Positions 939 through 60,036 are shown, counted from the first letter of the stretch. The stretch is DNA of 64,000 nt from Patescibacteria group bacterium (GCA_041738615.1 JBGSPL010000003.1:114352-178351); one strand, 5' to 3'. The notes: generated by a model from the letters alone, not told the origin. A program made the numbers and translations.

Positions 939-1063
939 TTAGGCTCCTCTCTATCTCGTCAATGGTGTTCGTTACAACCAGATTATACTCTTTTTGTGCC
1001 TAGAATTGAAGGCGGCGCTTACCCCATGGGGTAAGCGCCGACCAGACAGAGAGAAATGAGTGA

Positions 1064-1348
1064 TTAGAGCCCGCGAGCTTGTTTGCGTCCCTCGCAGTGT
1101 TCATGCGGCGCCAGGTAGACGCCGTCGGCCTGTCTGCGAAAGTGAAGGAGAACCCCACAATCTGGGCACGGGGCCGTCTGTGGGACAGTATCCTGGCACT
1201 GGCACCCCATAATCATTCTTACGGTATTTTTGGCACGAGGATGAGCAAGCGCCCCGTTCCCCTTAAAACATGCTTCCAGTACGACCGGTGTCTGACACTT
1301 CGTGCATGCTATATCAATGGCATTACTCGGTGTGCTGACGTCACCCAT
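1064..1348 (-). CDS. Island A Cys-rich hypothetical protein (94 aa from MGDVST)
   Basis: GC-rich ORF; AAGGAG RBS 7 nt upstream of ATG at 1348; CxxC...CPDC...HEHC pattern suggests metal binding. Confidence 0.45.
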   Translation of the reverse strand: MGDVSTPSNAIDIACTKCQTPVVLEACFKGNGALAHPRAKNTVRMIMGCQCQDTVPQTAPCPDCGVLLHFRRQADGVYLAPHEHCEGRKQARGL

Positions 1349-1440
1349 CTCTAGCTCCTTCGGTTGTGGTACTCGACAATTCATCTGTCGCGAATGTTCT
1401 TGGTCGGGCTGGCAAGGGATCGACCTTACCAGCCCGGAAT

Positions 1441-1466
1441 AAAAAAACCTCGCCGGAAAGCGAGGT
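1441..1466 (-). terminator. Rho-independent terminator (CCTCGCTTTCCGGCGAGG + T7 on minus strand)
   Basis: Perfect 6-bp stem hairpin followed by TTTTTTT on minus strand, downstream of island A gene 1711..1929. Confidence 0.6.
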
Positions 1467-1710
1467 GATCTTCTACATTGTGCTAAAACAACTAAAACTC
1501 CGCTTTCCTGCTCGTGGTAGTAAAGAAAAAAGGGAACGGGCGAAATGTATTTGTTGTTTGCATGTGAAATATCTTAGCCAACTTGAGCTTAAATGTCAAT
1601 AAAGCGAACGGCGCACCGTCCAAGCCTGCCCTGTAGGGCACTTATCAACCTCAACGTATGTTCATACGTATCTCGATTGGCTTGGTCTGGTGCGCTCGTG
1701 TTCGCGAGAG

Positions 1711-1929
1711 CTACATAGCAGGTACGGGCTTCACTTCCACCCGGAGCCCTTCTTTCGTGGGACGGCCTTCCAGGATGTTGCGCCTGACGTACAAGGCGTT
1801 CAGGTTCTCCCTGATCCGAGCCGCTTTCCTTGAGCGCTCCGGAAGACCCTCGAGCTTACCTTCGAGGCACTTGATTTCCTCGCATACCTCAGCGAGTTCC
1901 GCCATATTGGCGTCCGTACCATTCGGCAT
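1711..1929 (-). CDS. Island A hypothetical protein (72 aa from MPNGTD)
   Basis: GC-rich ORF; RBS GAGGGGAGG 5 nt upstream of ATG at 1929; coiled-coil-like composition. Confidence 0.45.
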   Translation of the reverse strand: MPNGTDANMAELAEVCEEIKCLEGKLEGLPERSRKAARIRENLNALYVRRNILEGRPTKEGLRVEVKPVPAM

Positions 1930-1940
1930 GGTTCCTCCCC

Positions 1941-2141
1941 TCATGCTGGGACGTTTGGTCCCGAGCACCTCGTTGTGATCCAAACACCTGCCTGCTGATC
2001 CGCGACTACCTGAAGCTTGCCCCCTAACTCAGAAGTGTAAGCTGTATAGCCCATCTTACGACAGGCCGCTACGGCCTTCTCCAGATCTTCGCGGCTCACC
2101 CCTTCTGGCGCCGGCATTGTCGTCGGCTCACTACTCGCCAT
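1941..2141 (-). CDS. Island A hypothetical protein (66 aa)
   Basis: GC-rich ORF; RBS AGAGGGGGGG 3 nt before ATG; stop 12 nt before next gene start, operon-like. Confidence 0.45.
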   Translation of the reverse strand: MASSEPTTMPAPEGVSREDLEKAVAACRKMGYTAYTSELGGKLQVVADQQAGVWITTRCSGPNVPA

Positions 2142-2206
2142 ACCCCCCCTCTTTCTCTCGCGGTTTCTGTATGTACCCGGGCGAGGTCCACCCGCATTAA
2201 CCTCAG

Positions 2207-2277
2207 CGGGGACGGCAGGATTCGAACCTGCACTCTACGGATGTTATCCGCTTGCCTACCAATATGGCCGCATCCCC
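2207..2277 (-). tRNA. tRNA gene, 71 nt, best-fit anticodon AAC (Val) - atypical
   Basis: Minus-strand GGGGATG...GGTTCGAATCC...CGTCCCC: 7-bp acceptor, T-arm GCAGG/TTCGAAT/CCTGC, D-loop with GG, anticodon loop AUAACAU with U33 and A37. A34 is unusual for bacteria; isotype needs tRNAscan. Confidence 0.6.
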
Positions 2278-2285
2278 ATAGAATC

Positions 2286-2309
2286 AAAAAACCTCACCGC
2301 TTGGTGAGG
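2286..2309 (-). terminator. Rho-independent terminator (CCTCACCAAGCGGTGAGG + TTTTTT on minus)
   Basis: 7-bp perfect stem followed by T6 on minus strand, just upstream (5') of the tRNA. Confidence 0.55.
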
Positions 2310-2476
2310 CCTACACGTGATTAGATGCTCCTACTCTTCTACCCGGACCTCATCAACCACAACCTCACCATAGCTACGGAGAATAGCTAGGACCACTACG
2401 AGGACGAGAATAAATGTGGTTGTTACGATTAACATGGCTATATGGTAGTAAATTTCCGCTCAGCCGTCAATAGAAA

Positions 2477-3349
2477 TTATTTAACTTTCTTTACTTCGTT
2501 TTGCCCTATCTCGAAGCTAACCGTCCCTTCTTGATCGGTCCGAAAGACCTGTATACCAGAAAGCGCAGCTAGCGCCTTTGTAGTTGGATGGCCAAACTTG
2601 TTATCCTTCCCGACCTCTATCACCGCAAACTTTGAATTCACTGCCTTTAGAAAATCAACACTTACCGAATCCTTGCTCCCGTGATGTGGGACTTTATAGA
2701 GTGAGCTGCGTATCTCTTGTCCAGACGCTAACAGCTGGCCCTGAGCCTCAGCTTCGAGGTCTCCCATAAAGAGGGCCGACTCACCCCCATAGCTCAGCTT
2801 AGTCACGACCGAGCTGTTGTTGATGTTGTCCATACTCGTTCCGGAAACTTCACTCAAAGGGAAAAGGAAACTGATCCCAACACCCGCTCCCAGGTCTAGC
2901 TTATCCCCTGCCTTTACGGCCTTCGTGCTCACATTCTTTGATTTCAGCAAACTCAAAAACTCCAAATACTCATCCGTAGAATAAGTAACTCCGCTAATAT
3001 ACGCCGTCTTGACCTGGTATTTCTTCAGTACCGAGACGAGTCCTGCCACGTGGTCTGCATGAGGATGGGTAAGGACTATTGCGTCAATCCTGCGACTATA
3101 GAAAGGAATGAACTTATCAAGCTCAACAAGAACACTGTCATCGGGACCGCCATCTATAAGCACATTCTGATGGCTCGGAGTCTGGATAAGCTCGGCGTCA
3201 CCCTGTCCCACAGATAAGAAATGTACAAATAGCCCGTTTTCGGTAGGTTTTACATCCGCTGACCAAACCGCAAAGACTAGCAAGGTCAATATAGCCAAAG
3301 CAAGAGTGTTACCAAGTATCTTTCTGATGTATTGCCATATGGCTCTCAT
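2477..3349 (-). CDS. ComEC-related metallo-beta-lactamase fold protein with N-terminal TM anchor
   Basis: 290 aa; HPHADHVAG..., GDLEA..., PHHGS MBL motifs as in ComEC/Rec2 C-terminal domain. Confidence 0.75.
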   Translation of the reverse strand: MRAIWQYIRKILGNTLALAILTLLVFAVWSADVKPTENGLFVHFLSVGQGDAELIQTPSHQNVLIDGGPDDSVLVELDKFIPFYSRRIDAIVLTHPHADHVAGLVSVLKKYQVKTAYISGVTYSTDEYLEFLSLLKSKNVSTKAVKAGDKLDLGAGVGISFLFPLSEVSGTSMDNINNSSVVTKLSYGGESALFMGDLEAEAQGQLLASGQEIRSSLYKVPHHGSKDSVSVDFLKAVNSKFAVIEVGKDNKFGHPTTKALAALSGIQVFRTDQEGTVSFEIGQNEVKKVK

Positions 3350-3506
3350 AACACAATTATATTACTTATCTTAAACCTTTACAGGTATACACTTTTTTGT
3401 TAATATACTTCACATGCAAACCGCAACGAACAACATGAAGAAATGCTGGAAGAAGGCTCGCCTCACGGAGAGTGTGCTTTAGGTTTGTAGATTTACTTTA
3501 CCTATC

Positions 3507-3534
3507 AGCTCTCCGCTAAGGAGAGCTTTTTTTA
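3507..3534 (+). terminator. Orphan plus-oriented hairpin+T7 (AGCTCTCCgctaaGGAGAGCT TTTTTTT)
   Basis: Perfect 8-bp stem + T7; no plus-strand gene immediately upstream. Confidence 0.35.
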
Positions 3535-3619
3535 TGGAAATTTCGGGGGGAATCCTGAAGTATCCACCAATACAAGATGGGCTGAGAAGCTCGCGTACCA
3601 CGAAAACGAGGAGGCACTG

Positions 3620-3820
3620 ATGAGCGCGAATACTCCGGGCGACATGCCAAGGAAGAGCCAGATCCGTGTAGGTTTTGGGAACGTGGAAACGACAGGGGGA
3701 CACATCGGAAGCACCGTCGTCCATCACTCCACCCAGAACACCGACGCCGAACTCGAGCGAATCCCGTCTATCGAACCGAAGAGTCCAAGCCTCGGGGCCT
3801 TGTTCCCCGAAGTCGACTGA
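3620..3820 (+). CDS. Island B hypothetical protein (66 aa)
   Basis: GC-rich; RBS GAGGAGGCACTG-ATG. Confidence 0.4.
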   Translation: MSANTPGDMPRKSQIRVGFGNVETTGGHIGSTVVHHSTQNTDAELERIPSIEPKSPSLGALFPEVD

Positions 3821-3829
3821 GGAGGCACC

Positions 3830-4084
3830 ATGAGTACGGACGGAAGAGATTGGACCCTAGTGCCTGGGTTGCCACTTTGCGTAAATCCAGTAGGACTCCA
3901 GGTAGCTCGTATGTCTGCGGGCTTTACTCAGGAGTCGCTCGTTGGGCCGTGCCCGCTCAGGGGATCTATCCTGATCTACGGCCAGAGTTGCCGTTGTGGC
4001 GTCGCTGACGTCATTGGATGCGGCTACCTTGTTCACCAGGCAGAACCCGCCCTGGCCTCCATCCCGCTCGCCCCTAATCTCTAG
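3830..4084 (+). CDS. Island B hypothetical protein (84 aa)
   Basis: GC-rich; RBS GAGGAGGCACC-ATG nearly identical to the upstream gene's RBS; stop lies in terminator hairpin. Confidence 0.4.
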   Translation: MSTDGRDWTLVPGLPLCVNPVGLQVARMSAGFTQESLVGPCPLRGSILIYGQSCRCGVADVIGCGYLVHQAEPALASIPLAPNL

Positions 4085-4105
4085 GGGCGGGCGGGCGCCC
4101 TTTTT
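4070..4105 (+). terminator. Double-hairpin Rho-independent terminator of island B (GCCCCTAatctcTAGGGGC + GGGCGGGCGCCC TTTTT)
   Basis: Two GC-rich stems followed by T5; the palindromic CTAG supplies stop codons on both strands. Confidence 0.65.
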
Positions 4106-5523
4106 CCAAAAAACAACCAGATGTCCAATATGAAGATATACGCAAGGAGAATCCACCACGGGTTCTCTATTTTGTATGCCGCGCTCGCCCAGCCCACGCT
4201 TCCGGACCACGTGATAACAGCGTTTATAAAGTGCAATATATAAAAGGTGGGCACTGCCAGAAATGTCCCCAGCGGTTGCCAAAGTATCCCCACTATTCCC
4301 ATCGCAAATGTCATTGCCATAGCCAGCGGGACTAGCGCCAAGATTACAACATTTGTTAGTGGCGCTATCACCGATACAATACCAAAGTAGTAGGAAAGGA
4401 GCGGCAATGTAGCGATCTGAGCCCCGAGGGTCTCGGAAAAAAGTGCCACATAACCTCCGCCAGCTCTTTCGAATAGGTTTTCTATTGTCGGTCCTATGTA
4501 CACGATACCTGCGAATGCAACAAAAGAGAGTTGGAAACCGACATCAAAGAGCGGCAGAAATGGATTAAACACAGCCATCATTGTCGCTGAAAACAAAATC
4601 GAGATAAAATTATCACTTTCCCGCCCGAGGTATGATGCGAGTAATGGTAAAGAACCCATGAGCGCCGCGCGCACCAAACTTGGTGCGCCACCAGTCATTA
4701 AAACAAAAATTAGAATCAAGGAAACAGGGAGTATCAGCTTCATCCGACGTGACATTTTGTTTCTAATCAGCAAAAAAGCCCCCATCAGGATAGTGATGTT
4801 ATAACCCGAGAGCGCAATAATGTGCGTGGTTCCGCTCACTTGCAGTGCCCTGACCATCTCAGGGCTCACGAGCGCCTTTTCTCCCATGATTATTCCGCTC
4901 CCCAAGCCAGCCTCGGCTGAGGGCAAGAGTCGTGAGATTGATTCGTTTAGCGCCTGCCGAAATGAGAGAAGAATGCCCCTGGCACCAACAAACACGCCTT
5001 CGCTCTGACCCGAACTCTCATATTTGGAGACAGACACCTCTCCAAGGAGTCCGTTGCTAATCATTCGCCATCGTGTCTCTTCTTTGTAGCCGGTGATTTT
5101 GGTCTCCAGCTCCAGCAATTCGCCATACTTCGGGGCTGTTCCGCTGTTTATATAACCTGTAAGTTTCGAGCCCACAAGGTCAGATTCTCCTGACACGACG
5201 ACCAAACGTACCTTATCACCATGAAGTGCCTTCTGGGGCAAATCATCTACTCGCGCCGTGAAGTGAAGATTATTACCGGAATACATGGAGTTAAGTTCGA
5301 TCAACCTAGAAGCAACGGCCTGGAAATGCCAAAGGGAAAGTAAGAACAGCCCTAAGCCGAATATTGTTCCAAATAAATACGGTTTCTTCAAAAATAGAAA
5401 AGACAATGCGATTAAGGTTCCCGCCAACGCGAGGTAGCCAGCAAGATAAATAGGTAGCACGAAACCCGCGAAACATCCCGCCAGATAGCAAAATAGCCAA
5501 ATTAGCAGTACTTTTGCCTTCAT
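4081..5523 (-). CDS. comEC: ComEC/Rec2 family competence protein, N-terminal DUF4131 + competence (membrane channel) domains, no MBL domain
   Basis: 480 aa, many TM segments, ...HIIALSGYNITIL... competence-domain pattern; C-terminal codons (RAPARP*) run into the island B terminator hairpin. Confidence 0.8.
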   Translation of the reverse strand: MKAKVLLIWLFCYLAGCFAGFVLPIYLAGYLALAGTLIALSFLFLKKPYLFGTIFGLGLFLLSLWHFQAVASRLIELNSMYSGNNLHFTARVDDLPQKALHGDKVRLVVVSGESDLVGSKLTGYINSGTAPKYGELLELETKITGYKEETRWRMISNGLLGEVSVSKYESSGQSEGVFVGARGILLSFRQALNESISRLLPSAEAGLGSGIIMGEKALVSPEMVRALQVSGTTHIIALSGYNITILMGAFLLIRNKMSRRMKLILPVSLILIFVLMTGGAPSLVRAALMGSLPLLASYLGRESDNFISILFSATMMAVFNPFLPLFDVGFQLSFVAFAGIVYIGPTIENLFERAGGGYVALFSETLGAQIATLPLLSYYFGIVSVIAPLTNVVILALVPLAMAMTFAMGIVGILWQPLGTFLAVPTFYILHFINAVITWSGSVGWASAAYKIENPWWILLAYIFILDIWLFFGKRAPARP

Positions 5524-5536
5524 AAGGGTATTTTAC

Positions 5537-5565
5537 TTGAAAAATATTCATTCTCATAATATAAT
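5537..5565 (+). promoter_or_regulatory. sigma70-like promoter TTGAAA-N17-TATAAT driving island C
   Basis: -35 TTGAAA 5537-5542, 17-nt spacer, -10 TATAAT 5560-5565. Confidence 0.5.
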
Positions 5566-5629
5566 TCCCGAGACGGAGGGCACGAGTAATCGTGTCCTCA
5601 AATCGTAGTTCCCGACCAAGGGAGGTCGC

Positions 5630-6236
5630 TGTGAGCAAAACAACCGCAGCCCAAGAGGACACTCGCATTACCCCCGAAAAGCACGTCTACTTCGACGACT
5701 GGAACAAGACCAGCCTTCGCCTCGGCAAGCTCGCCCGAGTCCTTGGCTGGGGCAGCCCGACGAAGGGTGATGGTGCTTTCAGCTCCGGCCAGGCAATCCA
5801 ATTTCAGCGGGTCACGGTCATCCTGCCGAGCGACGGTTCCAAGCCGTTCTACCTCGGCAACATCGAGATGGATGGACCGGCCGTCAAGGTCAACACTCTC
5901 TTGGCAAAGGGGTTGATCGACCAGCAGACGGCAGACGCTATCAATGCCGAGGTCGAGCTCGCGAAGGCAGCACGCATCACACGTCGCAAGCAGACCGAGA
6001 AGGCAAGGGAGAACTTCTCCTCGGCAGAGGGCAGGCTCCGTCAAGCACTGGCAGAGGTCGATCAGGCGGATCGCTTGGTTCACAAGCTTTCACGTGACCG
6101 GAAGAAGCCCATCACTGAAGTCGACGTCGCGCGCAAGGCCTACTTCAAAGCACAGGACAAAGAGAAGCGTGCGCGGCGCCATCGCGACAGGCTCTCTGAG
6201 CTGCGCATGGTAGGTCGAATTTCTCTGCCCCTCTAG
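5630..6236 (+). CDS. Island C hypothetical protein (~202 aa from GTG)
   Basis: GC-rich; RBS AAGGGAGG 5618-5625 then GTG 5630; basic/coiled-coil C-terminus; leader contains 8-bp stem GNRA-tetraloop hairpin (5578-5597). Confidence 0.5.
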
Positions 6237-6257
6237 CCCATGCCCCGTTGGGGCAAC

Positions 6258-6316
6258 GTGAAACCCTTGGTGTAACGACCAAGATCTCCGTTGCACCAAC
6301 GGGGTTTCACTTTATT
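6258..6316 (+). terminator. Long hairpin terminator of island C (GTGAAACCC...GGGGTTTCAC + TTTATT)
   Basis: ~22-bp imperfect stem then T-rich tract. Confidence 0.6.
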
Positions 6317-6321
6317 AGCAA

Positions 6322-6345
6322 AATAACCCCACGAGTGGGGTTATT
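6322..6345. terminator. Bidirectional hairpin AATAACCCCACGAGTGGGGTTATT between convergent genes
   Basis: Perfect stem flanked by A/T runs on both sides. Confidence 0.5.
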
Positions 6346-6359
6346 TATAAGAGTCCAAA

Positions 6360-6818
6360 CTAAACTGTAAATATTTTGAATACTGAGAATAAAACAGAGA
6401 GTAAGGTTACCACAACTATGCCGACTAGAAACATAGCACCGATAGTCTTCCAACCTAGATTATTGTAACCCTTGGCTAAATCTGGTAGCGTTTTTCGAAG
6501 ACTGTAGTAATACACAGCCTGTCCGATCAACGGATTTAGGGTCATGATTGCGACTGCCTTTGCATTAGCTACTTCTGTTCTAGCTATCTCGGGGTTTTTC
6601 TTAATCTTGTCTACATCCATGAGTGCTAGTACAAAACCAATACCTACAAGTACCCAACTAGCTGCTGGTATAAAACTATTTACTAGGTTCGCAACGACTA
6701 CAATACCCGCGATTATAAATAAATACTTCCATTTAAAAACTTTGAGCGTAATTTTTTCAGTTGAAGCTACTGGTGCCACCGGTGCCACTTCTGGTTTACC
6801 CATTTCTACGTCTGTCAT
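6360..6818 (-). CDS. Hypothetical membrane protein
   Basis: 152 aa, 3-4 hydrophobic helices. Confidence 0.5.
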   Translation of the reverse strand: MTDVEMGKPEVAPVAPVASTEKITLKVFKWKYLFIIAGIVVVANLVNSFIPAASWVLVGIGFVLALMDVDKIKKNPEIARTEVANAKAVAIMTLNPLIGQAVYYYSLRKTLPDLAKGYNNLGWKTIGAMFLVGIVVVTLLSVLFSVFKIFTV

Positions 6819-6841
6819 CTTTCTCCTTTATTTATCCGTTA

Positions 6842-7480
6842 CTAATTATATCTAAACCCAAAGTTCCAAACAACTATTCCTATAAAGATTAAAATTATGA
6901 TAAACATGAACAAACCAACTTTCCATCTAATTGGTTTGTTTTCATTCTGATGACTTACCATTACTAGCTGATTACCATTTAAGAACTTCTGCAAAGTATC
7001 GCCGACGGATATTTGCTTATTGGCAGAAAGAACATTCAAAATTGTATTTCGTAGTGTTTTCTCCTTTAGAAAGATAAAGTCGGCTTGATCTACTAAATAT
7101 TTCATCCCATCATCCATGGTAATCTCTAGATAACGCAGCGGTATTAGCGTAAGCAAGAAAAGCAGATTATCAAATACAAAGACATCGTTGTTAAATACGC
7201 TCAGAAAGTTCATGGATTTAATCTCTGAAATATTTATAGTATTTGCTCCTATCGGACCACCAAGTTCTAGACTGTTACCCTTAAGCGCAAAGGTATACCT
7301 TCTCAAAGAATACGACACTACAAATATACCCATGATTCCCAAGAAAATCAGTCCAAAGTGAGGAATCAATTCGGTTAATTGTTGAGAGAATAATTGCTTA
7401 GCAGTCCAATTTAGTAGATAAAAGACAAATAATAGTCGAATAAATACTATTTCGAGACTTAAAACTTTTCTTTTTTGCAT
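6842..7480 (-). CDS. Hypothetical membrane protein
   Basis: 212 aa, hydrophobic N- and C-terminal segments, very AT-rich. Confidence 0.5.
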   Translation of the reverse strand: MQKRKVLSLEIVFIRLLFVFYLLNWTAKQLFSQQLTELIPHFGLIFLGIMGIFVVSYSLRRYTFALKGNSLELGGPIGANTINISEIKSMNFLSVFNNDVFVFDNLLFLLTLIPLRYLEITMDDGMKYLVDQADFIFLKEKTLRNTILNVLSANKQISVGDTLQKFLNGNQLVMVSHQNENKPIRWKVGLFMFIIILIFIGIVVWNFGFRYN

Positions 7481-7536
7481 AGGAATAATATATAATAATT
7501 ATGCAATTGAGTAAATACTAAGAACAAAGAAATAGG

Positions 7537-8343
7537 GTGCGACTTATGGATACTCCAGAAAATATAGAAAGCAAGATACCAACATCAGTAGAGAAAAAGA
7601 ATTTTCTTGATACCTTAAGGCAGCACAAATTGGCTACGGCATTGGTATCAATTTTTTCCTTGTTGCTTCTTATATTCTTATTGGCAATTAACACAAAAGA
7701 TCAGGCAAGCGCCAACGCCAAAGAGGAATTAGCAAAATACTTAAATGATAAATACAAAGAAAGTTTTGATACAATTGACTACATTACTTATAGCAACGAA
7801 GGTAGCGCAGACTCTTGGGAAAAGATACTTGTAGTAAACCCAGCTAACGACAAATCTGTAGTTTTTGATGCTACGAAAACTTCTGAAGGAATTACTGACA
7901 GCTATCGATTATCAAGATGGTCAAAAGAACTAACAGGTAGACTGCGGGCTCAGGTAGAAGGCCTATTTAATTCAGAGACAGTTGTAAAAATATACCCAAC
8001 GGCAGATCGCACCTCCAGCCTACCGAAGGATTTTTCGTTTTATGATAACAACGTTACCACCGTTTATTTAGTAGGTGTAAAAACTTTAGGCTCAATAAAT
8101 TTTAGCGACTATCGTGAGTCAGTGTTTAAGCTCTATCAGCTTGCACGAAGTAACGGTGGGCAATTCGATATCAGTGTCCAGTTTGTTAGCTCCCTAGACA
8201 ACTTGACAAATGATGTTGAATATCGTAACGTGAATAGCCGCTACAATCGGTCTACTAATGGCGTAAACGCTCGTATAAATGTTGGTTCGCTTGAGAATAT
8301 AACAACGGCTAAAGATCTAGACAAGTATTTCGTTTCAAACTAA
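7537..8343 (+). CDS. Hypothetical membrane-anchored/secreted protein
   Basis: 268 aa, single N-terminal TM then hydrophilic Ser/Asn-rich domain. Confidence 0.55.
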   Translation: MRLMDTPENIESKIPTSVEKKNFLDTLRQHKLATALVSIFSLLLLIFLLAINTKDQASANAKEELAKYLNDKYKESFDTIDYITYSNEGSADSWEKILVVNPANDKSVVFDATKTSEGITDSYRLSRWSKELTGRLRAQVEGLFNSETVVKIYPTADRTSSLPKDFSFYDNNVTTVYLVGVKTLGSINFSDYRESVFKLYQLARSNGGQFDISVQFVSSLDNLTNDVEYRNVNSRYNRSTNGVNARINVGSLENITTAKDLDKYFVSN

Positions 8344-8411
8344 AGAAATGATTTCTTACTGATATCAAAGAATCCCCCATTTCTGGGGGATTCTCTTAAA
8401 TAGATGTACTA

Positions 8412-8687
8412 TTAGTTTTCGCGATGTTTAGCGAAACAATCACGGCAATATACTGGACGATCTGACTTTGGCTCGAAAGGAACCGTAGTAGTCTGACCAC
8501 AGTCTGCGCAAACTACCTCGAAGCTCTTTCGGTCCATTTTGGCCTCTTTGAACTTGCGACGGCAATCAGCACAACGCTTAGGCTCGTTTTCGAAACCTTT
8601 CTCAGCATAGAACTCCTGTTCACGCGCTGTAAAAGCGAAATCTGAACCACAATCTACACATGAGAGTGTTTTGTCTTCATAACTCAT
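8412..8687 (-). CDS. Zinc-ribbon domain protein (two CxxC...CxxC pairs)
   Basis: 91 aa; CVDCG...CADCR and CADCG...CRDC. Confidence 0.6.
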   Translation of the reverse strand: MSYEDKTLSCVDCGSDFAFTAREQEFYAEKGFENEPKRCADCRRKFKEAKMDRKSFEVVCADCGQTTTVPFEPKSDRPVYCRDCFAKHREN

Positions 8688-8835
8688 TTAGTCGATATCT
8701 CCTTTCAAAAGATTCTCCATCCGGAGTGGGGCTCGACTTAGTGCAGATTGGGACTGGCCTTTTTCTGTTCCTAAATTTCGGACCATCCATACTATACCAT
8801 AAGATGGGGAAAAAAGATACAAGATTATTATTAAT

Positions 8836-9423
8836 CTACTTCTTGATCAGCTGTATCCCCTGCTTTCTAAAGATTAATAGAAAGAGCGTCCCGCAAATCA
8901 AGAATATATATATTGGAAAAGCCGCTACCGTAAATGACCATGTCTTTATGGTTAGTAAAGTGATGGCTGCGCTGACAGCCCCAAAAAAGAACACGTTATA
9001 GCTCTCCGTTTCAGGAAATTTATAGGCCTTGATGAGAATAGGTACACCAGCAAGTAAGTCGGCTAAGATACTCAAAATGATTGCAACATAACCAGTTTTT
9101 GTCAGGAACCAAAGCACTAAAGCAAGCAAGGAAAGGGCACCGCAGGCAATATCAAGCTTTGAGATTTTCCAATAAGCCTTCGGGTCATGGAAGGAAACCA
9201 GAAAAACTACAGCTGGCCCAAAACCAACCATGAAGGTCATGAGCGAACGAAGACCAACGCCGCCGCTAATCTGGGCTGAAAAGGCGATTAACGGAGCTAG
9301 AGCCCAAAGGAAGAAAGTGACCCGGTTCGGCTGGGTCTTACCTCGAAAAGTATCTATAGCATAGCTGCTGCTTCCAACGAGATTTAATAGTGCCCCAAGT
9401 AAAACAAAATTTTCATTTAACAT
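8836..9423 (-). CDS. Hypothetical polytopic membrane protein
   Basis: 195 aa, ~6 TM segments. Confidence 0.5.
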   Translation of the reverse strand: MLNENFVLLGALLNLVGSSSYAIDTFRGKTQPNRVTFFLWALAPLIAFSAQISGGVGLRSLMTFMVGFGPAVVFLVSFHDPKAYWKISKLDIACGALSLLALVLWFLTKTGYVAIILSILADLLAGVPILIKAYKFPETESYNVFFFGAVSAAITLLTIKTWSFTVAAFPIYIFLICGTLFLLIFRKQGIQLIKK

Positions 9424-9468
9424 ACGTTTCTCCTTCCTATAAAATATACGCTAAATCCTATACAAAAA

Positions 9469-9506
9469 CAAAAATGAGGCATCCAACAAGTTGGAAACCT
9501 CATTTT
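9469..9506 (-). terminator. Hairpin AAAAATGAGGcatccaacaagttggaaaCCTCATTTTT following tRNA-fMet
   Basis: 10-bp stem flanked by A5/T5; reverse complement copy at 10319-10358. Confidence 0.55.
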
Positions 9507-9581
9507 TGGTAGCGGGGGTAGGATTCGAACCCACGACCTTCGGGTTATGAGCCCGACGAGCTGCCACTGCTCCACCCCGCG
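9507..9581 (-). tRNA. Initiator tRNA-fMet (CAT)
   Basis: CGCGGGGTGGAGCAG...TCGGGCTCATAACCCGA (three G:C pairs in anticodon stem)...GGTTCGAATCC...ACCA; closely resembles canonical bacterial initiator tRNA. Confidence 0.85.
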
Positions 9582-9632
9582 TTATTAACAAACATAATTT
9601 TAGCAGTATTTGTGCTTAAAGTCAAGGCTGGA

Positions 9633-10028
9633 CTAGCCCTTAAAGAAGAACTTCAACCATTTCTCGGGACCAGAAAGCTTGTCATAAGGATCTTTTTCAG
9701 CCACTTTCTTGGTATCTTCTGGCAAGATAACTATCACCTTTTCACCTGGTTTCTGCAAACCCAGACGTTCTCTTGCTATCCGTTCCTGATAAGACGAGCT
9801 CTGGTAGTAGATGATCTTCTCAGAGAGGTCCTTATTTGCAAGCCTCATGGTCTCAATTTCGTTTTTGAGGCCATTGATCTCTTGTCTCACCTGATAGCTC
9901 TGGTAAAGGGTCTTCCCGACAACAAACAGTAAGTAAAGAATGGAGACGACTATAACGATGCGAATGAGGAAGTTATCTTTGTTCATATCTACATTATAGC
10001 AAGCAAGTATCTCGTTGACTATAAGCAC
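9633..10028 (-). CDS. FtsB/DivIC-like septum formation initiator (single TM + coiled coil); start uncertain (GTG 10028 or ATG 9986)
   Basis: TM helix then coiled coil QEINGLKNEIETMRLANKDLSEKIIYYQ... Confidence 0.5.
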   Translation of the reverse strand: MLIVNEILACYNVDMNKDNFLIRIVIVVSILYLLFVVGKTLYQSYQVRQEINGLKNEIETMRLANKDLSEKIIYYQSSSYQERIARERLGLQKPGEKVIVILPEDTKKVAEKDPYDKLSGPEKWLKFFFKG

Positions 10029-10139
10029 GATTTTCGGTATAATACCTATGTTTCAAAGTTTTCTCGACACGTTTAAGATTACCAGAAACGGCAACGGGCC
10101 GCTAAGTTTTAGCGGCTAAAAAAATCCCATATTTCATCG

Positions 10140-10215
10140 GGGCCTGTAGCTCAGTTGGTAGAGCAATTGCCTTTTAAGCAACTGGTCGCGCGTTCGAGTC
10201 GCGCCGGGCCCACCA
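10140..10215 (+). tRNA. tRNA-Lys (TTT)
   Basis: GGGCCTGTAGCTCAGTTGGTAGAGC...anticodon loop CTTTTAA...GTTCGAGTC...CCA. Confidence 0.85.
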
Positions 10216-10243
10216 GATATTTATTCCGATTCGTTCATGACGT

Positions 10244-10318
10244 GGCTGCGTAGCTCAGGGGTAGAGCAGCAGACTCATAAGCTGTTGGTCGGTGGTTCAA
10301 ATCCACCCGCAGCCACCA
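10244..10318 (+). tRNA. tRNA-Met (CAT), elongator-type
   Basis: GGCTGCGTAGCTCAGGGGTAGAGC...anticodon loop CTCATAA...GGTTCAAATCC...CCA. Confidence 0.85.
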
Positions 10319-10358
10319 AAAATGAGGTTTCCAACTTGTTGGATGCCTCATTTTTGTT
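10319..10358 (+). terminator. Hairpin terminator after tRNA-Met; inverted copy of the 9469-9506 element
   Basis: AAAAATGAGGtttccaacttgttggatgCCTCATTTTT. Confidence 0.55.
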
Positions 10359-10367
10359 TAGAAAATG

Positions 10368-10862
10368 TTATCTCCGAAACTTATTCCAAAGAGTGATTGT
10401 AGTCAGCATCACGATTGGCGCGAGAAGCCAGAGTAGCTGATAGTTTGAAACCTGTATCGCCAGCGAACTGTCGCTAAAAAGTAATGCCTTCTCTTCATCG
10501 CCCATCAGTGTAAACACACTCGATAAGAGCAAACCGGCAGCCAAAACACCGTAAATGGCTGTTTGTATCGATTTTGAACCGCCATCGTTGCCACCGCTCA
10601 GCTCTTTGTTCATCATTAGAACAAAAAGGACAGTGACAAAAACAAAAACCTTGGCGCCAAACATTGTGAGGTTGAATGAATGGGAAATATCGGTAATTTT
10701 AGTCAAATACTGATAAGCGTAGCTACCCACATGGCTAGATACAGTGAGGGCAACATAGGAGTTTATGATAATGCTGAGCACTCGACTCCGCCCTAGGAGG
10801 AAGCCATAAACGCCCATTATTACGAATGTGAGGACTATGAAAAGATCCCAAGATAGGGTCAT
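10368..10862 (-). CDS. CvpA-like small membrane protein
   Basis: 164 aa, 4 TM, Gly-rich loop. Confidence 0.4.
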   Translation of the reverse strand: MTLSWDLFIVLTFVIMGVYGFLLGRSRVLSIIINSYVALTVSSHVGSYAYQYLTKITDISHSFNLTMFGAKVFVFVTVLFVLMMNKELSGGNDGGSKSIQTAIYGVLAAGLLLSSVFTLMGDEEKALLFSDSSLAIQVSNYQLLWLLAPIVMLTTITLWNKFRR

Positions 10863-10963
10863 AGTGTTCCTTATGTTAGCACTTCACCTAGTATAGCGCC
10901 TGACTGTATCTGTGGTCAAATATGCAAAGGGACGAGCGCCCGATGCATTTACTTTGCATCGGA

Positions 10964-47367: not shown

Positions 47368-47379
47368 GTATCTACTTAA

Positions 47380-49319: not shown

Positions 49320-49382
49320 GATTACATTCTATATCAACTAGTACTTAATTCCAAACGAAGCAATTAATTACAAAATGCAACG

Positions 49383-49411: not shown

Positions 49412-49439
49412 GGTTGTGTTGCTTGTTGTGCGCGACCTA

Positions 49440-49562
49440 GATGTCGACGAGGGTGGCCCAATCGGTGGGCACCGCATCTACATCTGAGGGAGTAATGTCG
49501 ACCGACTCACTGTCGACAGTGACACTATCCTGTGGGCTCTTGTCATCGGCGGCCATGTGGTT
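49440..49562 (-). CDS. Island G micro-ORF (40 aa, acidic)
   Basis: Perfect AAGGAGG RBS 11 nt before ATG; downstream of G1 in same orientation; short, so tentative. Confidence 0.3.
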
Positions 49563-49586
49563 ACCTGCCTCCTTGGTGGAAAGTGG

Positions 49587-50045
49587 CTAAACCGTGACCA
49601 TCGCCGAGTCGGCCACAAGGACGTTCTGCCAGTGCGTAGCCGCGTACGGATCCGGGATGTTCTTCCGCTGCCAGAAGATGACGAAACGGATCTTGTCCAC
49701 GTCGATGCCGTTGGCGAGGAGATGCTTCTTGATCTCCTCAACCGCCTCGGGAAGCTTGGCCCAAGCTTCGGGCTCATCCATGGGACGAGCCCGGCACTCC
49801 TCGTGCGCGGCCAGCGAGATGACGCTGACGCCGAGGTGATTGACCGCAAAGGCAAGCCGCTCATGCAGAGCGAGACGCCTGTGCTCTGTGGCTCCGCCGA
49901 GGATAACCCCGATGGGACCAAACTCGTCACACGGGATGACCTGATCGGCGCCGAACCTGGTGACGAGTGCCATTCTCATTGCACCCAACGTGTCGCGCGG
50001 ATCGCTGCAAGCGATATTCGCGACAACCAACTTCTCTCCGGCCAT
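49587..50045 (-). CDS. Island G gene G1: GC-rich xenolog of neighbouring beta-carbonic-anhydrase-like (CxDxR...HxxC) protein, ~152 aa
   Basis: RBS GAGAGGGGAACGC-ATG; IACSDPRD...AAHEECRARP aligns with native CMDGR...AHQGCAKN in 50194..50619. Confidence 0.5.
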   Translation of the reverse strand: MAGEKLVVANIACSDPRDTLGAMRMALVTRFGADQVIPCDEFGPIGVILGGATEHRRLALHERLAFAVNHLGVSVISLAAHEECRARPMDEPEAWAKLPEAVEEIKKHLLANGIDVDKIRFVIFWQRKNIPDPYAATHWQNVLVADSAMVTV

Positions 50046-50109
50046 GCGTTCCCCTCTCGTCGAACTGACAATGTGCAACACAATTCCAGATTATACACTA
50101 TTTTTGCAA

Positions 50110-50134
50110 AAAGTCCAGCTTTTGGCTGGACTTT
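50110..50134 (-). terminator. Terminator AAAGTCCAGC-caaaa-GCTGGACTTTTT for native 50194..50619 gene; TATAAT follows on minus strand
   Basis: Perfect 10-bp stem + T5 on minus strand; putative G1 promoter TGGACT-N16-TATAAT overlaps. Confidence 0.55.
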
Positions 50135-50193
50135 AAGGCGTAAATTTGTAATGCAATGGATTCTGAAATTAGTTCAGAATGACGCTGAATATA

Positions 50194-50619
50194 TTAGGCT
50201 TCGATAAGCTTGTCGGCTATGTGGTGAATCTCCCAATCAAGATCTGTGTTCTTGGTAACCCAAAGACCGGTGATGCGGACACCCACTGGTAATCCCCATT
50301 TGGTAGCAAGAATCTCTACTGACTCTTTGAGCTCTGCAAGCTGCTCCTCGTCCGAGATTGGATTCTTGGCGCAACCCTGATGAGCGACGATGGCAACATT
50401 GCGAGAGTTGTGTCCATTGATGGAGATAAGAGTCTCTGCCTTGTAGTGCTCTACGATAGCGGCATCGCCTTTTACTATCATATTTGTAGGACCGGCTGGG
50501 TTTGGTGCATCCACAACGTCAAGCGCAAACTGTTCCTTCATCCACTTTGCCACTGGTTCCTGGGTACGGCCATCCATGCAGTTGAGCATGGTTCCGAATT
50601 TGGTATTTGTATCAGACAT
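50194..50619 (-). CDS. Native small Cys-Asp-Arg / His-x-x-Cys protein (beta-carbonic-anhydrase-like zinc ligand pattern)
   Basis: 141 aa; LNCMDGR and VAHQGCAKN motifs; homologous to island G gene. Confidence 0.45.
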   Translation of the reverse strand: MSDTNTKFGTMLNCMDGRTQEPVAKWMKEQFALDVVDAPNPAGPTNMIVKGDAAIVEHYKAETLISINGHNSRNVAIVAHQGCAKNPISDEEQLAELKESVEILATKWGLPVGVRITGLWVTKNTDLDWEIHHIADKLIEA

Positions 50620-50653
50620 AAAAATATCCTCCTAGATTACTTTAGTAGATTGT

Positions 50654-57594: not shown

Positions 57595-57669
57595 TCCCGG
57601 GTAGCTCAGTGGTAGAGCAGTTGGCTGTTAACCAATTGGTCGTCGGTTCGAATCCGACCCCGGGAGCCA
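57595..57669 (+). tRNA. tRNA-Asn (GTT)
   Basis: TCCCGGGTAGCTCAGTGGTAGAGC...anticodon loop CTGTTAA...GGTTCGAATCC...GCCA. Confidence 0.85.
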
Positions 57670-57724
57670 AAATGAATTCAAAAAGAAGCCTCGCAAGAGA
57701 CTTCTTTTTTATTAGAGAATCGAA

Positions 57725-58849
57725 TTACACTTGTTGTGCCTTTAGATACCCGAATCCCATCTGTACGAGGGTTCCGAATACTGTCCAGCCAACAATGAGT
57801 CCAAAGATACCGCCGACGAAAGGAACCACTGAAACTAGAACATAAAGCACAACACCGAGAGCTGCGGTTTTCCAGTTCACTACAAGTCCTTCTTCCTTAC
57901 GGAGATACTTCCAGGCGTACGAGCCGACGAGCAATGCGGAGAGTGTGCCCGCTAGAGCAAACGCCACAAGGTAAGCTAGGAATACATACCAGAGCACTCC
58001 CCAACCAACAAAGGAGATCAACAGTAGCAGGAGGGCAAACGGTGTCACCACAATCGCTACAAACCCCATCCAGAAATTGCGGAGAGGCTTGACTGTTGCT
58101 GCCGCCAATACTTGGGCAGAAAACTTTGGTAAAAGCTTGATAAAGACAAGTAGAGCTATGAGGCCAGTGATAATACTGATGACTATACCGCCAGCCCTTT
58201 CACCTACGGTCTGTCCCGTAGAGTTCATGGTTGAAACCTTGGTGAACTCTGTTTTGCCAACCTTGGCTCCCGAGGCTACAACGGCCTCTTTGTCCGCGCT
58301 GTATTTGAGTTTGCCCCCTATTACTGCTGCAGTATCAACCTTGATGTCACCTGCATTGTACAGCTCGACGTCATTTGCAACTTTTCCAGATATCGTTACG
58401 GTGCCGCCACTACTGCTTTTGACTGAACCAGAGATGTTACCACGTAGATTCACGGTGCCGCCAAAAACAATTACATCACCTGCGATAACTGACTTGGTTC
58501 CCAGAGTGACATCACCACCAAAAACGACCAAGTCACCGCCCACGGTGCCATCGATTGTCACTGTTCCACCGGCAACGCGTACATTCTTACCAGTGCCCCC
58601 GAACAGGTTTAGGGTGCCACCAGCTGCCAAGATGCTGTCCTCAACATCTCCGTTTACGGTTACGGTTCCACCGGCAACGACCAGGTCCCCTAAGACATTG
58701 GCATCAACTGTTGGATTCTCTCCTGCTAGGTAGAGATTCTTTGTTTTTGTCTCCTTGGCTACCAACTCTGCAGACTGAAGGTCCGCGGCTAGCGAGAAAA
58801 CTGGGAAAACGACAACCAATGCCGCAAGCATCCATAAGAACTTTTTCAT
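57725..58849 (-). CDS. Secreted beta-helical repeat protein with C-terminal polytopic membrane domain
   Basis: Signal peptide; ~10 repeats of GGTVT..GDV..; 5-6 C-terminal TM helices. Confidence 0.5.
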   Translation of the reverse strand: MKKFLWMLAALVVVFPVFSLAADLQSAELVAKETKTKNLYLAGENPTVDANVLGDLVVAGGTVTVNGDVEDSILAAGGTLNLFGGTGKNVRVAGGTVTIDGTVGGDLVVFGGDVTLGTKSVIAGDVIVFGGTVNLRGNISGSVKSSSGGTVTISGKVANDVELYNAGDIKVDTAAVIGGKLKYSADKEAVVASGAKVGKTEFTKVSTMNSTGQTVGERAGGIVISIITGLIALLVFIKLLPKFSAQVLAAATVKPLRNFWMGFVAIVVTPFALLLLLISFVGWGVLWYVFLAYLVAFALAGTLSALLVGSYAWKYLRKEEGLVVNWKTAALGVVLYVLVSVVPFVGGIFGLIVGWTVFGTLVQMGFGYLKAQQV

Positions 58850-58938
58850 AATTCCCCTTACTTTAATCTAAGTACATTATAATACATTCGCATAGAGAAA
58901 ATAATATGTTTTATTCTCAGAATGGGATTATACGCTAT

Positions 58939-58964
58939 TGACCCCTTGTCCTCTTTGGTATAAT
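58939..58964 (+). promoter_or_regulatory. Promoter TTGACC-N14-TATAAT with extended -10 (TGG TATAAT) for island H
   Basis: -35 58939-58944, -10 58959-58964; spacer short (14) but TG at -15/-14. Confidence 0.45.
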
Positions 58965-59025
58965 ATATCCTGTTCGTTCTATCCAAGGAATCCTGCAAGG
59001 AATCCGAGAGGGGAAGGAAGGCACG

Positions 59026-59216
59026 TGAAGAACAGTCGAAGCCTGAGCCCAGAAGCTCGTGGTCGACAAGCGATACTGGGGCTTGTCGTCCTCACTATCG
59101 TTGTATCGCTACTGTTCGGCTACCTTGGTGCTACCGGCAAGATCAAGGCCAACTCGAACGGGAATAGCGTCAAGGCACGGCCTGGCGTGTCCGCCATCAC
59201 GACCGACACAAAGTAG
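59026..59216 (+). CDS. Island H gene H1: small membrane protein (63 aa, GTG start)
   Basis: RBS CGAGAGGGGAAGGAAGGCAC-GTG; single TM. Confidence 0.4.
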
Positions 59217-59226
59217 GGTGGTTCAA

Positions 59227-59661
59227 ATGGTAGAACAGCAGAACAATGGTGGCCGCTTCCGCTTCGTCCTGGGCACTCTAAGCTCAGGTGATAAGAGGGA
59301 GCCAGAAGCAGCGCTTCTGCAGCTACACTGGAAAAGGGTATCTTTCGAACCCTCGCCCGAGAAGAACGGTGTCGCAATCACCGAGAGCTGCTCCGCAGCA
59401 CTCCGGGCGATAAAGGTCTTCGCCGGCGAACAGCGGATGTGCACGTGCACTCCTGACGGTTACGAGTACCTCTTCTCCACCACTCTCTCCATCGAGACGG
59501 GTGGCGACGTGCCCGAAGGCCAGTTGGCAATCTTCTGGCCGAAACCTGGTGGCCACTGCGGACTCGTACGCGACGTCACCTTCTACACAATCGGTGACGT
59601 TCCGGACGAAAAGCTCGCGAGCATCATCGACATCATCGAGGCGCAGCTGCCTCACGACTAG
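59227..59661 (+). CDS. Island H gene H2: hypothetical protein (144 aa from MVEQQNN)
   Basis: GC-rich; listed ORF begins at 59059 but overlaps H1; ATG 59227 follows H1 stop by 10 nt. Confidence 0.45.
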   Translation: MVEQQNNGGRFRFVLGTLSSGDKREPEAALLQLHWKRVSFEPSPEKNGVAITESCSAALRAIKVFAGEQRMCTCTPDGYEYLFSTTLSIETGGDVPEGQLAIFWPKPGGHCGLVRDVTFYTIGDVPDEKLASIIDIIEAQLPHD

Positions 59662-59679
59662 CACACCTCGTGTGCACCT

Positions 59680-59751
59680 GCCCCGCCTGCATGACAACAA
59701 ACCGTTTGTTGCTCTTGCGAGCGGGGCGTTGTCATTTAAATATTATTTTTT
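59680..59751 (+). terminator. Compound hairpin terminator of island H followed by TTAAATATTATTTTTT
   Basis: CCCCGC...GCGGGG and ATGACAAC...GTTGTCAT stems then T6. Confidence 0.55.
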
Positions 59752-60036
59752 AGTTCTAAAAGCTTCTATAAACCCATCCGGTACCGGATCATCACCACCG
59801 TGATTCCATGGATTGCAGCGAATTATACGCCAACTACCCATAATGGTGCCGAGAATGACACCATGTTCCTCTATCGATCGCTTTGTATATTCTGAACATG
59901 TTGGCTTAAATCTACAGTATCCATGAGGAAAAAAACCTCGGAAAATACCATGATCAGGCGAGATTGTCTTCTGATACAGCGTTATCAGGCTTACAAACGG
60001 CCAACGAATAATCTTATTTAGAGTTTTCATCAGCAA
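59743..60036 (-). CDS. yidD: Membrane protein insertion efficiency factor YidD
   Basis: YCRFKPTCSEY motif; downstream of rnpA. Confidence 0.9.
   Translation of the reverse strand: MLMKTLNKIIRWPFVSLITLYQKTISPDHGIFRGFFPHGYCRFKPTCSEYTKRSIEEHGVILGTIMGSWRIIRCNPWNHGGDDPVPDGFIEAFRTKK

Follow-up and report, generated by a model that had tools for sequence, protein, structure and literature searches.

The 64,000-nucleotide stretch of Patescibacteria group bacterium DNA analysed here in full (GCA_041738615.1 JBGSPL010000003.1:114352-178351, referred to below as the window) carries eight groups of short GC-rich segments, hereafter islets A to H. Atypical composition is routinely taken as a sign of recent horizontal transfer. 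The islets are mostly old, vertically inherited and subject to purifying but fast evolution, rather than recent imports, and their raised GC content is best read as a maintained property and not as the decaying signature of a donor. The explanation we favour, with somewhat more confidence than doubt, is that they are autonomous, fast-evolving orphan accessory genes, exchanged within a naturally competent lineage like the minimal mobile elements of Neisseria. The best label for what is new is a GC-richer, persistently maintained class of orphan genes in a genome of the Candidate Phyla Radiation (CPR); the known kind to which it would belong is that of slot-bound accessory genes exchanged by recombination.

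Host chromosome, composition and expression signals

The window is chromosomal DNA of Candidatus Saccharibacteria, small symbionts or epibionts with reduced genomes that belong to the CPR. Its native genes include yebC, a two-part comEC, an hrcA-grpE-dnaK-dnaJ cluster, rnpA-rpmH, ATP synthase genes, a group-3-type [NiFe]-hydrogenase operon with hypC, and tilS-ftsH-murJ-lepA. The sole genome match among GTDB representatives (ComEC 76% identical) was an uncultured Candidatus Saccharibacteria metagenome-assembled genome (MAG), GCA_964501135.1, which served as the comparison relative. Three stretches of it (L003, L004 and L014) match most of the window collinearly, with a nucleotide identity of 70-83%. 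Housekeeping proteins are closely similar in the two genomes (DnaK 98%, DnaJ 94% and LepA 98% identical), and native third codon positions differ at 42-57%, which is near saturation.

Islets were delimited as segments with a GC content of at least 0.56 in 200-nt windows, giving eight groups totalling 10.6 kb (Table 1) in a window of overall GC 0.479. From open reading frames (ORFs), start-site context and, where available, recorded gene calls, 17 islet gene models were built. These have GC 0.556-0.619 (median 0.583) and GC at third codon positions (GC3) of 0.56-0.81, compared with GC 0.317-0.536 (median 0.465) and GC3 0.30-0.62 in 66 native genes. The two GC ranges do not overlap, and the Mann-Whitney p is ~1e-10 for GC and for GC3. 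Third positions are A.13, C.38, G.32 and T.17 in islet genes and A.22, C.28, G.23 and T.27 in native ones. A preliminary description of this DNA had placed segments of 58-65% GC in a chromosome of 35-50% GC. Its eight GC-rich segments stand; the first range is slightly high and the second slightly narrow, and the contrast, though real, amounts to ~10-12 points rather than the 20 implied. The same description had named uniform GC and codon usage as grounds for abandoning the idea, and the quantitative comparison of GC, GC3 and codon usage shows a non-uniform composition.

Base-composition-corrected dinucleotide distance (delta*) between islets and native DNA was 0.079, against a null of 0.031 +/- 0.010 from size-matched native samples, and none of 300 resamples reached it. 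In dinucleotide signature seven of the eight islets are nearer to other islets than to native DNA; for gene E delta* is 0.042 to the other islets and 0.067 to native DNA. Translational selection was rejected as the cause of high GC3. Codon choice in the genes for DnaK, DnaJ, GrpE, ATP synthase and FtsH is that of the remaining native genes, so the shift is compositional, and C- and G-ending codons both rise in islets.

The islet genes thus form a statistically distinct compositional class, and most are self-contained expression units. A1, C, D1, D4, D5, F1, F2, G1 and H1 each have a near-consensus promoter-like site upstream (9-11 of 12 positions matching), and leader palindromes were seen at F1 and D4; near-consensus sigma70 promoters in the linkers and palindromic leaders had both been described before. 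For A3/A2, B1/B2, D3/D2 and E, by contrast, the search gave no recognisable promoter, so the statement that every segment is a complete expression unit, with promoter, Shine-Dalgarno (SD) sequence and terminator, is right for most but not for these. Since E starts 11 nt after hypC, it is probably co-transcribed with that gene. The SD sequence GAG[AG]GG[AG]G precedes A2, A3, D1, D3, G1 and H1, and AGAGGGG precedes D5; G-rich sites are therefore present at all seven genes for which they had been listed. AGGGG occurs within 20 nt upstream of 8/17 islet starts and 3/66 native starts (Fisher p = 7e-5), and a GGAG/GAGG core at 13/17 and 19/66, respectively. Over the whole window the SD 8-mer is not over-represented (11 found, 8.5 expected), and the proposed islet specificity of the site applies to gene starts but not to its overall frequency. 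Long GC hairpins with a U-run follow C, D1, D2, E, F1, F2, H2 and B2 (z = -3 to -7). As had been noted, terminators are duplicated within two islets, the two 73-nt copies in D being 99% identical and those of F1 and F2 ~85%.

The likeness among islets ends there. An alignment of promoters and leaders from nine units revealed nothing in common beyond the hexamers and SD sequence, except between F1 and F2. No DNA repeat is common to different islets, whose hairpins are unrelated, and all-against-all BLASTP among islet proteins found no similarity and no paralogy. The cassettes had been called a family; this is true in a compositional and architectural sense only, and the common architecture is the generic bacterial layout of promoter, SD sequence and terminator with a G-rich SD flavour.

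Conservation, turnover and orphan status of the islet genes

It is extremely improbable that the islets are artefacts, produced by chimeric joins or contaminating reads or as spurious ORFs in non-coding segments, even though the sequence comes from a metagenome assembly and long ORFs arise by chance on both strands of GC-rich DNA. Pieces of the window are present in Logan assemblies of SRR28170474. One contig (L001) equals 13794-17914 at 100%, covers the junction of islet D with dnaJ and ends within the 73-nt repeat, a break that repeated DNA would be expected to cause; another (L006) equals 57641-64000 at 100% and contains islet H with both junctions. An independent MAG and contigs of ERR3839025 have orthologous islets A, B, D and F2 at these sites too. 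The preliminary description had advised inspection of the junctions, and chimeric assembly is now excluded for the islets that could be checked. Substitutions relative to GCA_964501135.1 concentrate at third codon positions, which identifies the islet ORFs as real genes. Rfam scans at gathering and E-value thresholds returned only tRNAs, and a low-threshold scan, which covered 900-16100, found no Rfam family in islets. As islet B also folded no better than shuffled sequences, the idea that the islets are structured RNAs was rejected.

A1, A3, B1, D1-D5 and F2 are retained at the same sites, with high GC3, in a relative whose synonymous sites are ~50% diverged. A1 is 66% identical in amino acids to its ortholog (86 codons, stop included), with 30/24/58 differences at first, second and third codon positions of 107 (rates 0.27/0.22/0.58). 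A3 is identical at 65 of 66 residues, with 2/1/24 differences in 67 codons, and is under strong purifying selection. B1 is 75% identical (8/13/19 of 67 codons; GC3 0.70 in the window and 0.72 in the relative). All five D genes are found in the same order next to dnaJ, their substitutions falling at third, then first, then second positions: D1 is 72% identical (0.23/0.19/0.38; GC3 0.81 and 0.75), D3 84% (0.11/0.09/0.16), D4 47% (0.40/0.29/0.58) and D5 61% (0.29/0.22/0.42), and the D2 ortholog is readable. GC3 across islet D is 0.68-0.81 in the window and 0.75-0.79 in the relative. F2, whose ortholog lies at the same site in L004 and L005, is 75% identical (0.24/0.15/0.57) and has GC3 0.67 in the window and 0.66 in the relative despite 57% third-position divergence. 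Most islet genes evolve faster than housekeeping genes.

Gene E carries the argument for maintenance furthest. Homologues with 38-46% identity lie directly 3' of hypC in four other genomes, all four to five known relatives are in Saccharibacteria-like contigs, and a scan of JGI metagenomes with the E alignment added one further hypC-E locus. E is GC-richer than its neighbours in all five genomes, whose background GC spans 33-49%. Its GC and GC3 are 0.574 and 0.67 in the window (neighbours 0.47-0.51 and ~0.50), 0.513 and 0.52 in L002 (0.40-0.50 and ~0.44), 0.498 and 0.47 in L009-L011 from three samples (0.36 and 0.21-0.25) and 0.544 and 0.58 in L012 (0.33-0.40 and 0.31-0.36); in L013 its GC is ~0.52 (neighbours ~0.42). 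Codon identity at conserved residues is at the level of chance (274 observed, 279 expected from codon usage), indicating that synonymous sites have fully turned over and that no nucleotide-level element is conserved. Because the GC3 offset persists in every lineage despite this turnover, it is not a donor relic, and it must be either maintained locally or renewed repeatedly in the same direction. The identities of E and HypC are roughly congruent, which argues for their co-inheritance. Conserved RNA structure in E was rejected, synonymous sites being random, and no antisense ORF is conserved among the homologues that would point to dual coding. Its invariant linkage to hypC suggests that E is tied to hydrogenase maturation, probably as an accessory factor of the group 3 [NiFe]-hydrogenase/HypC module.

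These results bear on the origin first proposed, repeated insertion from one high-GC source. In its fuller form, the islets would be recent acquisitions from a single donor, for example an actinobacterial host or its phage or plasmid, received as ready-made cassettes and now slowly ameliorating. We regard this as unlikely, although several observations favour it: in GC, codon usage and dinucleotide signature the islets stand apart from native DNA and are alike among themselves; the closest relative lacks C, F1 and G1; D reaches a somewhat higher GC3 (0.68-0.81) than A1/A3 (0.56-0.58); and the divergence between window and relative is estimated to permit only partial amelioration. Against it, A, B, D and F2 were present before the window and its relative diverged, and their GC3 is just as high in the relative; E, for all the saturation of its synonymous sites, is GC-elevated in five genomes; the promoters are AT-rich, of sigma70 consensus, and resemble resident ones rather than actinobacterial ones; there are no mobility genes and no common insertion sequence; and no donor homologue appeared where searches worked, E, F1, F2, H1, H2 and A3, which were compared with billions of proteins, having none outside a handful of Saccharibacteria contigs.

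Some slots also show turnover of their contents. At A2, homology with L003 spans the SD sequence and ATG, breaks just past the ATG and resumes at the stop codon, and the slot there holds an unrelated 65-aa GC-rich ORF. B2 is replaced in L003 by ~900 nt of unrelated GC-rich sequence with ORFs of 145 and 114 aa. Absent from the relative are 5526-8361 (islet C and three AT-rich genes; L003), 44107-46701 (F1; L004) and 49468-50623 (G1 and a Pro_CA_2 neighbour; L004); the relative's own GC-rich ORFs lie in the interval from lepA to a hemerythrin gene and downstream of the hydrogenase. Comparison with genomes lacking the inserts had been suggested; it shows A2, B2, C, F1 and G1 swapped, gained or lost, but A1, A3, B1, D1-D5 and F2 shared. 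The promoter/5' end and terminator of F1 are diverged copies of those of F2 and bracket the F1 unit, and the D1 unit is bracketed by the two 73-nt terminator copies. Such bracketing is what unequal homologous exchange between alternative slot occupants would be expected to produce, and the duplicated F1/F2 promoter and terminator and D1/D2 terminator may be its footprints.

Database searches returned few relatives of the 17 proteins. Pfam, PHROGs and NCBIfam gave no match except Pro_CA_2 in G1 (Pfam, 32.8 bits) and weak PHROG hits, in agreement with the earlier remark that no product but G1 has a recognised domain. PADLOC scored 10/17 islet proteins and found no defence family, and Pfam likewise gave no defence or toxin-antitoxin family. 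With all 17 proteins, tblastn found no match in 50,697 phage records or 72,556 plasmids, and phmmer none in PDB. IMG/VR scans of F1, D5, C, D1, D4 and E were empty, as was a JGI metagenome scan with A3. HMMER searches of F1, F2, H1, H2 and A3 against 1.84 billion representatives recovered one relative of F2 and otherwise nothing but the query proteins F1 and A3. At 90% identity, D2-D5, C and G1 are singletons and the A3 cluster has two members. Pfam found nothing in ten long antisense ORFs of the islets, and foreign genes read in the wrong frame were accordingly rejected. The AlphaFold2 model of E, from a four-sequence alignment, has a predicted local distance difference test (pLDDT) score of 47, and that of D5 (pLDDT 66) had no Foldseek match in PDB with E < 1.

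It is also very improbable that the islets are remnants of a degraded prophage or integrative element, such as morons or a lysis cassette, with D as a holin/endolysin/spanin-like module. D1 has weak PHROG matches to Rz-like spanins (E ~2e-3), D1, D5 and H1 have N-terminal membrane anchors, units have their own promoter and terminator as in morons, and at 29.3-36.5 kb the window does contain an element that is truly integrated and has a serine recombinase. Nevertheless, no PHROG, phage-genome or IMG/VR match was significant, structural and replication genes are lacking, the islets are dispersed between housekeeping operons rather than contiguous, islet D is stably syntenic beside dnaJ in two genomes, and the integrated element just mentioned is rich in AT, whereas the islets are rich in GC. 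No mobility gene was found in or beside islets by the Pfam, PHROG and NCBIfam scans; the window has no tyrosine recombinase, and its only recombinase (35050-36603) belongs to the separate AT-rich element.

Further features of the islets and of the surrounding DNA

Coordinates are collected in Table 1. The strand assignment of islet H is provisional, as Logan calls an antisense 110-aa ORF there; the islet C gene model matches the record, and the same gene call was made for D2 in L001.

Table 1. Islet segments, genes and expression signals (positions in the window; rows named "islet" give segments with GC of at least 0.56)
Feature	Position	Strand	Description
Islet A	1001-1300, 1601-2300
A1	1064-1348	-	94-aa Cys-rich zinc-ribbon-like orphan protein; SD GAAGGAG; promoter-like site 1571-1599; leader hairpin with T-run 1447-1466
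A2	1711-1929	-	72-aa orphan ORF, variable slot; SD GAGGGGAGG
A3	1941-2141	-	66-aa orphan protein
Islet B	3551-4200
B1	3620-3820	+	66-aa orphan protein; SD GAGGAGG; antisense between ComEC ORFs
B2	3830-4084	+	84-aa orphan ORF, variable slot; GC hairpin terminator 4063-4095
Islet C	5601-6300
C unit	5537-6310	+	Promoter TTGAAA-17-TATAAT 5537-5565; 201-aa orphan gene 5631-6236; hairpin terminator 6258-6310
Islet D	12901-14850, 15101-15700
Terminator copy 1, after D1	12911-12983	-	73 nt; -49 kcal/mol, z = -7.4
D1	13026-13568	-	180-aa protein, N-terminal membrane anchor and coiled coil; SD GAGAGGGG; promoter TTGACA-16-TAATAT 13710-13737
Terminator copy 2, after D2	13751-13823	-	73 nt
D2	13847-14155	-	102-aa orphan protein
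D3	14172-14489	-	105-aa basic orphan protein; SD GAGGGGAG
D4	14531-14908	-	125-aa orphan protein; leader palindrome 14938-14989; promoter TTGACA-17-TAGAAT 15025-15053
D5	15133-15702	-	189-aa membrane-anchored all-helical orphan protein; promoter TTGAAA-17-TATAAT 15824-15852
Islet E	25951-26700
E unit	26057-26702	-	203-aa gene 26091-26702; 13-bp GC hairpin terminator ~26063-26090
Islet F	44951-47400
F1 unit	44145-46690	+	Promoter-like site 44145-44173; leader palindrome 44276-44332; gene 44438-46615; terminator ~46637-46685
F2 unit	46708-47365	+	Promoter TTTACA-17-TACAAT 46708-46736; 184-aa gene 46750-47304; terminator ~47314-47362
Islet G	49351-50050
G1 unit	49587-50117	-	152-aa divergent Pro_CA_2 protein 49587-50045; SD GAGAGGGG; promoter-like site 50090-50117
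Islet H	59001-59700
H unit	58938-59735	+	Promoter-like site 58938-58966; hairpin terminator ~59679-59728
H1	59025-59216	+	63-aa membrane peptide; SD GAGAGGGGAAGGAAGG
H2	59227-59661	+	144-aa ORF

In the A3 leader lies a tRNA-Val-like sequence (2206-2277, minus strand) with the unusual anticodon AAC and a score of only 39.5 bits. Beyond it, a 34-aa hydrophobic ORF (2331-2435, minus strand; MLIVTTTFILVLVVVLAILRSYGEVVVDEVRVEE) starts 6 nt past a TTGACG-17-TACCAT promoter and is for that reason read as leaderless. It has a terminator of its own (2289-2312) and is ~95% conserved in L003, far more than neutrality would predict. Possible readings of it are a small membrane peptide and a type I toxin-like gene. 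Non-coding stretches of islet A (1590-1723) and islet B (3460-3660) are 85-95% identical to the relative, again above neutral expectation; they include hairpins and a promoter, match no Rfam family and may be regulatory RNAs or operators. Islet B lies antisense between two ORFs into which ComEC is split (2477-5523), one with the competence domain (4081-5523) and one with the metallo-beta-lactamase domain and its own membrane helix (2477-3349), and the same split is seen in L003.

Adjoining islet C are three AT-rich genes (6360-8343; GC 0.33-0.39) for membrane or secreted proteins, so that the single indel 5526-8361 holds both compositional extremes. The next 473 nt (8362-8834), which include a gene for a 91-aa CxxC zinc-ribbon protein, are 98.3% identical to the relative against a background of ~79%; this tract beside the variable region looks like the result of recent recombination between these lineages. 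A 115-nt inverted repeat further on (9466-9580 and 10245-10359) consists of two tRNA-Met genes with adjacent hairpins, and the segment 8835-10239 between and beyond the repeats is arranged otherwise in the relative, perhaps through inversion or deletion between them. The GGDEF diguanylate cyclase gene at 10964-11683 has the highest values among native genes (GC 0.536, GC3 0.62); its domain is a known one, and it stands at the border of the GC-rich class.

Both 73-nt terminators of islet D are 97% conserved in L014, far above the neutral expectation, marking them as functional elements. D3 diverges by only 16% at third positions, where neutral sites differ by ~50%; the segment with D3 and the terminators would have undergone either recent exchange or constraint at the nucleotide level. 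Many native starts (for example 29242, 29324, 12296, 27710, 44089 and 49319) have a TATAAT-like box that ends 5-8 nt before the ATG, and no SD sequence, which suggests widespread leaderless mRNAs among native genes, in contrast to the strong SD sequences of islet genes.

A mobile element has probably integrated at 29255-36545, an AT-rich block of 7.3 kb (GC ~0.40-0.45) that is missing from L004. At the end of the block lies the gene for a large serine recombinase of 517 aa (35050-36603), the 3' end of which runs into a tRNA-Met (36560-36635) beside tilS. In L002 a serine recombinase and tRNA-Met likewise lie beside tilS, suggesting a recurrent integration site.

F1 is a 725-aa acidic orphan with three tandem repeats of ~110 aa (residues 287-395, 408-500 and 511-618), which lie after an acidic region and are separated by Pro/Ser/Ala-rich linkers. 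A winged-helix-like domain common to these repeats, F2 and a 199-aa ORF of the relative was considered and rejected, a hidden Markov model of the three repeats finding only F1. The neighbour of G1 (50194-50619) is a Pro_CA_2 protein with a native-like GC of 0.49 and only 25% identity to G1. At this site, between DUF3006 (a 73-aa gene downstream of vanW) and atpC (ATP synthase epsilon), the relative has a gene for a 1029-aa hydrolase-like protein and two small low-GC genes.

Relation to known systems and biological meaning

Saccharibacteria are naturally transformable via ComEC, and cassettes integrate intergenically by flanking homology (PMC10633639). With the minimal mobile elements of Neisseria (Saunders & Snyder 2002; Snyder et al. 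2007), as these are defined in PMC3787668, the islets share fixed slots whose conserved flanks enclose differing whole-gene contents in close relatives (A2 and B2 replaced; C, F1 and G1 absent from the relative). They also share the lack of integrase, transposase, other mobility genes and element-specific terminal repeats, a naturally competent host lineage (ComEC in the window) and a near-identical recombination tract (8362-8834) beside a variable slot. Unlike the elements of that definition, the islets contain orphan genes of a distinct, GC-richer composition, can have break points exactly at start and stop codons (A2) and use promoter and terminator copies as frames (F1/F2, D1/D2); a DNA uptake sequence was not found here, and we infer the exchange between strains.

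Other systems fit less closely in one or more respects. Phage morons are likewise single genes or small groups of atypical composition with their own promoter and factor-independent terminator between unrelated genes, but the islets lie outside a prophage, are without relatives among the phage records, and are stable over two genomes (E over five). Integron cassettes and clusters of attC sites lacking integron-integrases (CALIN) resemble them as compact units of ORF plus hairpin, D and F containing neighbours with nearly identical structured repeats after the ORF. The islets, however, mostly have their own promoters and are dispersed over 58 kb, with no intI in the window, and their repeat behaves as a terminator with a U-run; attC cores (RYYYAAC...GTTRRRY) were not found, the 73-nt repeat of D ending in GCACAAC ... 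GTTTTAC / GTTATAG. Classical genomic islands have atypical composition, accessory or orphan content and variable presence among relatives in common with the islets, which differ in being 0.6-3 kb rather than >10 kb, GC-richer rather than AT-richer than the host, and free of integrases and tRNA-integrase-direct-repeat borders, and in the GC3 offset that E keeps at saturated synonymous sites. The one tRNA-like sequence in islet A (2206-2277) is missing from L003, where the islet and its surroundings remain. The preliminary description was right that this is not the usual picture of a prophage or a single island.

GC-biased gene conversion in bacteria was reportedly described by Lassalle and colleagues in PLoS Genetics in 2015. 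Its tracts would resemble the islets in showing local, equilibrium-like GC3 elevation at loci with signs of recombination and rapid turnover, and E, with GC3 above its neighbours and codon identity at chance, shows an elevation of this sort. We know of no gene-sized islets 10-20 GC points above their flanks that have been attributed to this process in bacteria.

As accessory genes exchanged at fixed slots, the islets would be small autonomous transcription units of the flexible genome, most with a sigma70-type promoter, several with a structured leader, and most insulated from neighbouring operons by the long GC hairpin. Their products would be lineage-restricted orphans, with D1, D5 and H1 membrane-anchored or coiled-coil and F1 a large repeat protein. 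Turnover between conserved frames would take the form of coding-sequence swaps (A2, B2) and of gain or loss of whole units (C, F1, G1), presumably through natural transformation (ComEC/type IV pili) and homologous recombination in conserved flanks, promoters and terminators. The membrane anchors of D1, D5 and H1, the coiled coil of D1, the repeats of F1 and the succession of a conserved and a hypervariable gene in A3/A2 and B1/B2, a pattern that resembles conflict loci in appearance only, hint that the products may have roles at the cell surface, in conflicts or in interaction with the host. Candidate causes of the GC elevation are GC-biased gene conversion at recombination-prone loci and selection on mRNA for GC-rich transcripts.

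Several points weigh against this explanation. Exchange by recombination is deduced from two genomes, and no donor allele was found elsewhere. The common dinucleotide signature would also fit a single foreign source. By a rough estimate, the divergence between window and relative permits only about half-relaxation of GC3, so that slow amelioration from a very GC-rich donor could still account for islets other than E. The orphan status of A1, A2, B1, B2, C and D1-D5 derives from 90%-identity clusters and from comparisons with Pfam, PHROGs, PADLOC, NCBIfam, phages, plasmids and PDB. The structure predictions were of poor quality or told little. A broader proposition, which we put forward only tentatively and consider rather doubtful, is that Saccharibacteria hold a second stable compositional class of genes, fast-evolving orphan accessory genes kept 10-20 GC points above the remaining genome, at synonymous sites too, by a locus-specific force such as either of these two candidates, and that the GC islets are the exchangeable part of the genome facing conflict or the host, not foreign DNA.

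Clear-cut GC-rich islets in the reduced genome of an epibiont thus appear to be largely old, vertically inherited and under selection, and one of them, E, still shows its GC offset in five genomes although its synonymous sites have turned over completely. If this is general, composition-based island callers would mislabel such genes, and CPR genomes would have an identifiable set of autonomous orphan genes in which host-interaction factors could be sought, which is of relevance because Saccharibacteria are now transformable and experimentally tractable. The loci would also offer a small, tractable test case for distinguishing GC-biased gene conversion from transcript selection in bacteria, and the hypC-linked gene E may encode a novel accessory factor for the group 3 [NiFe]-hydrogenase of these organisms.

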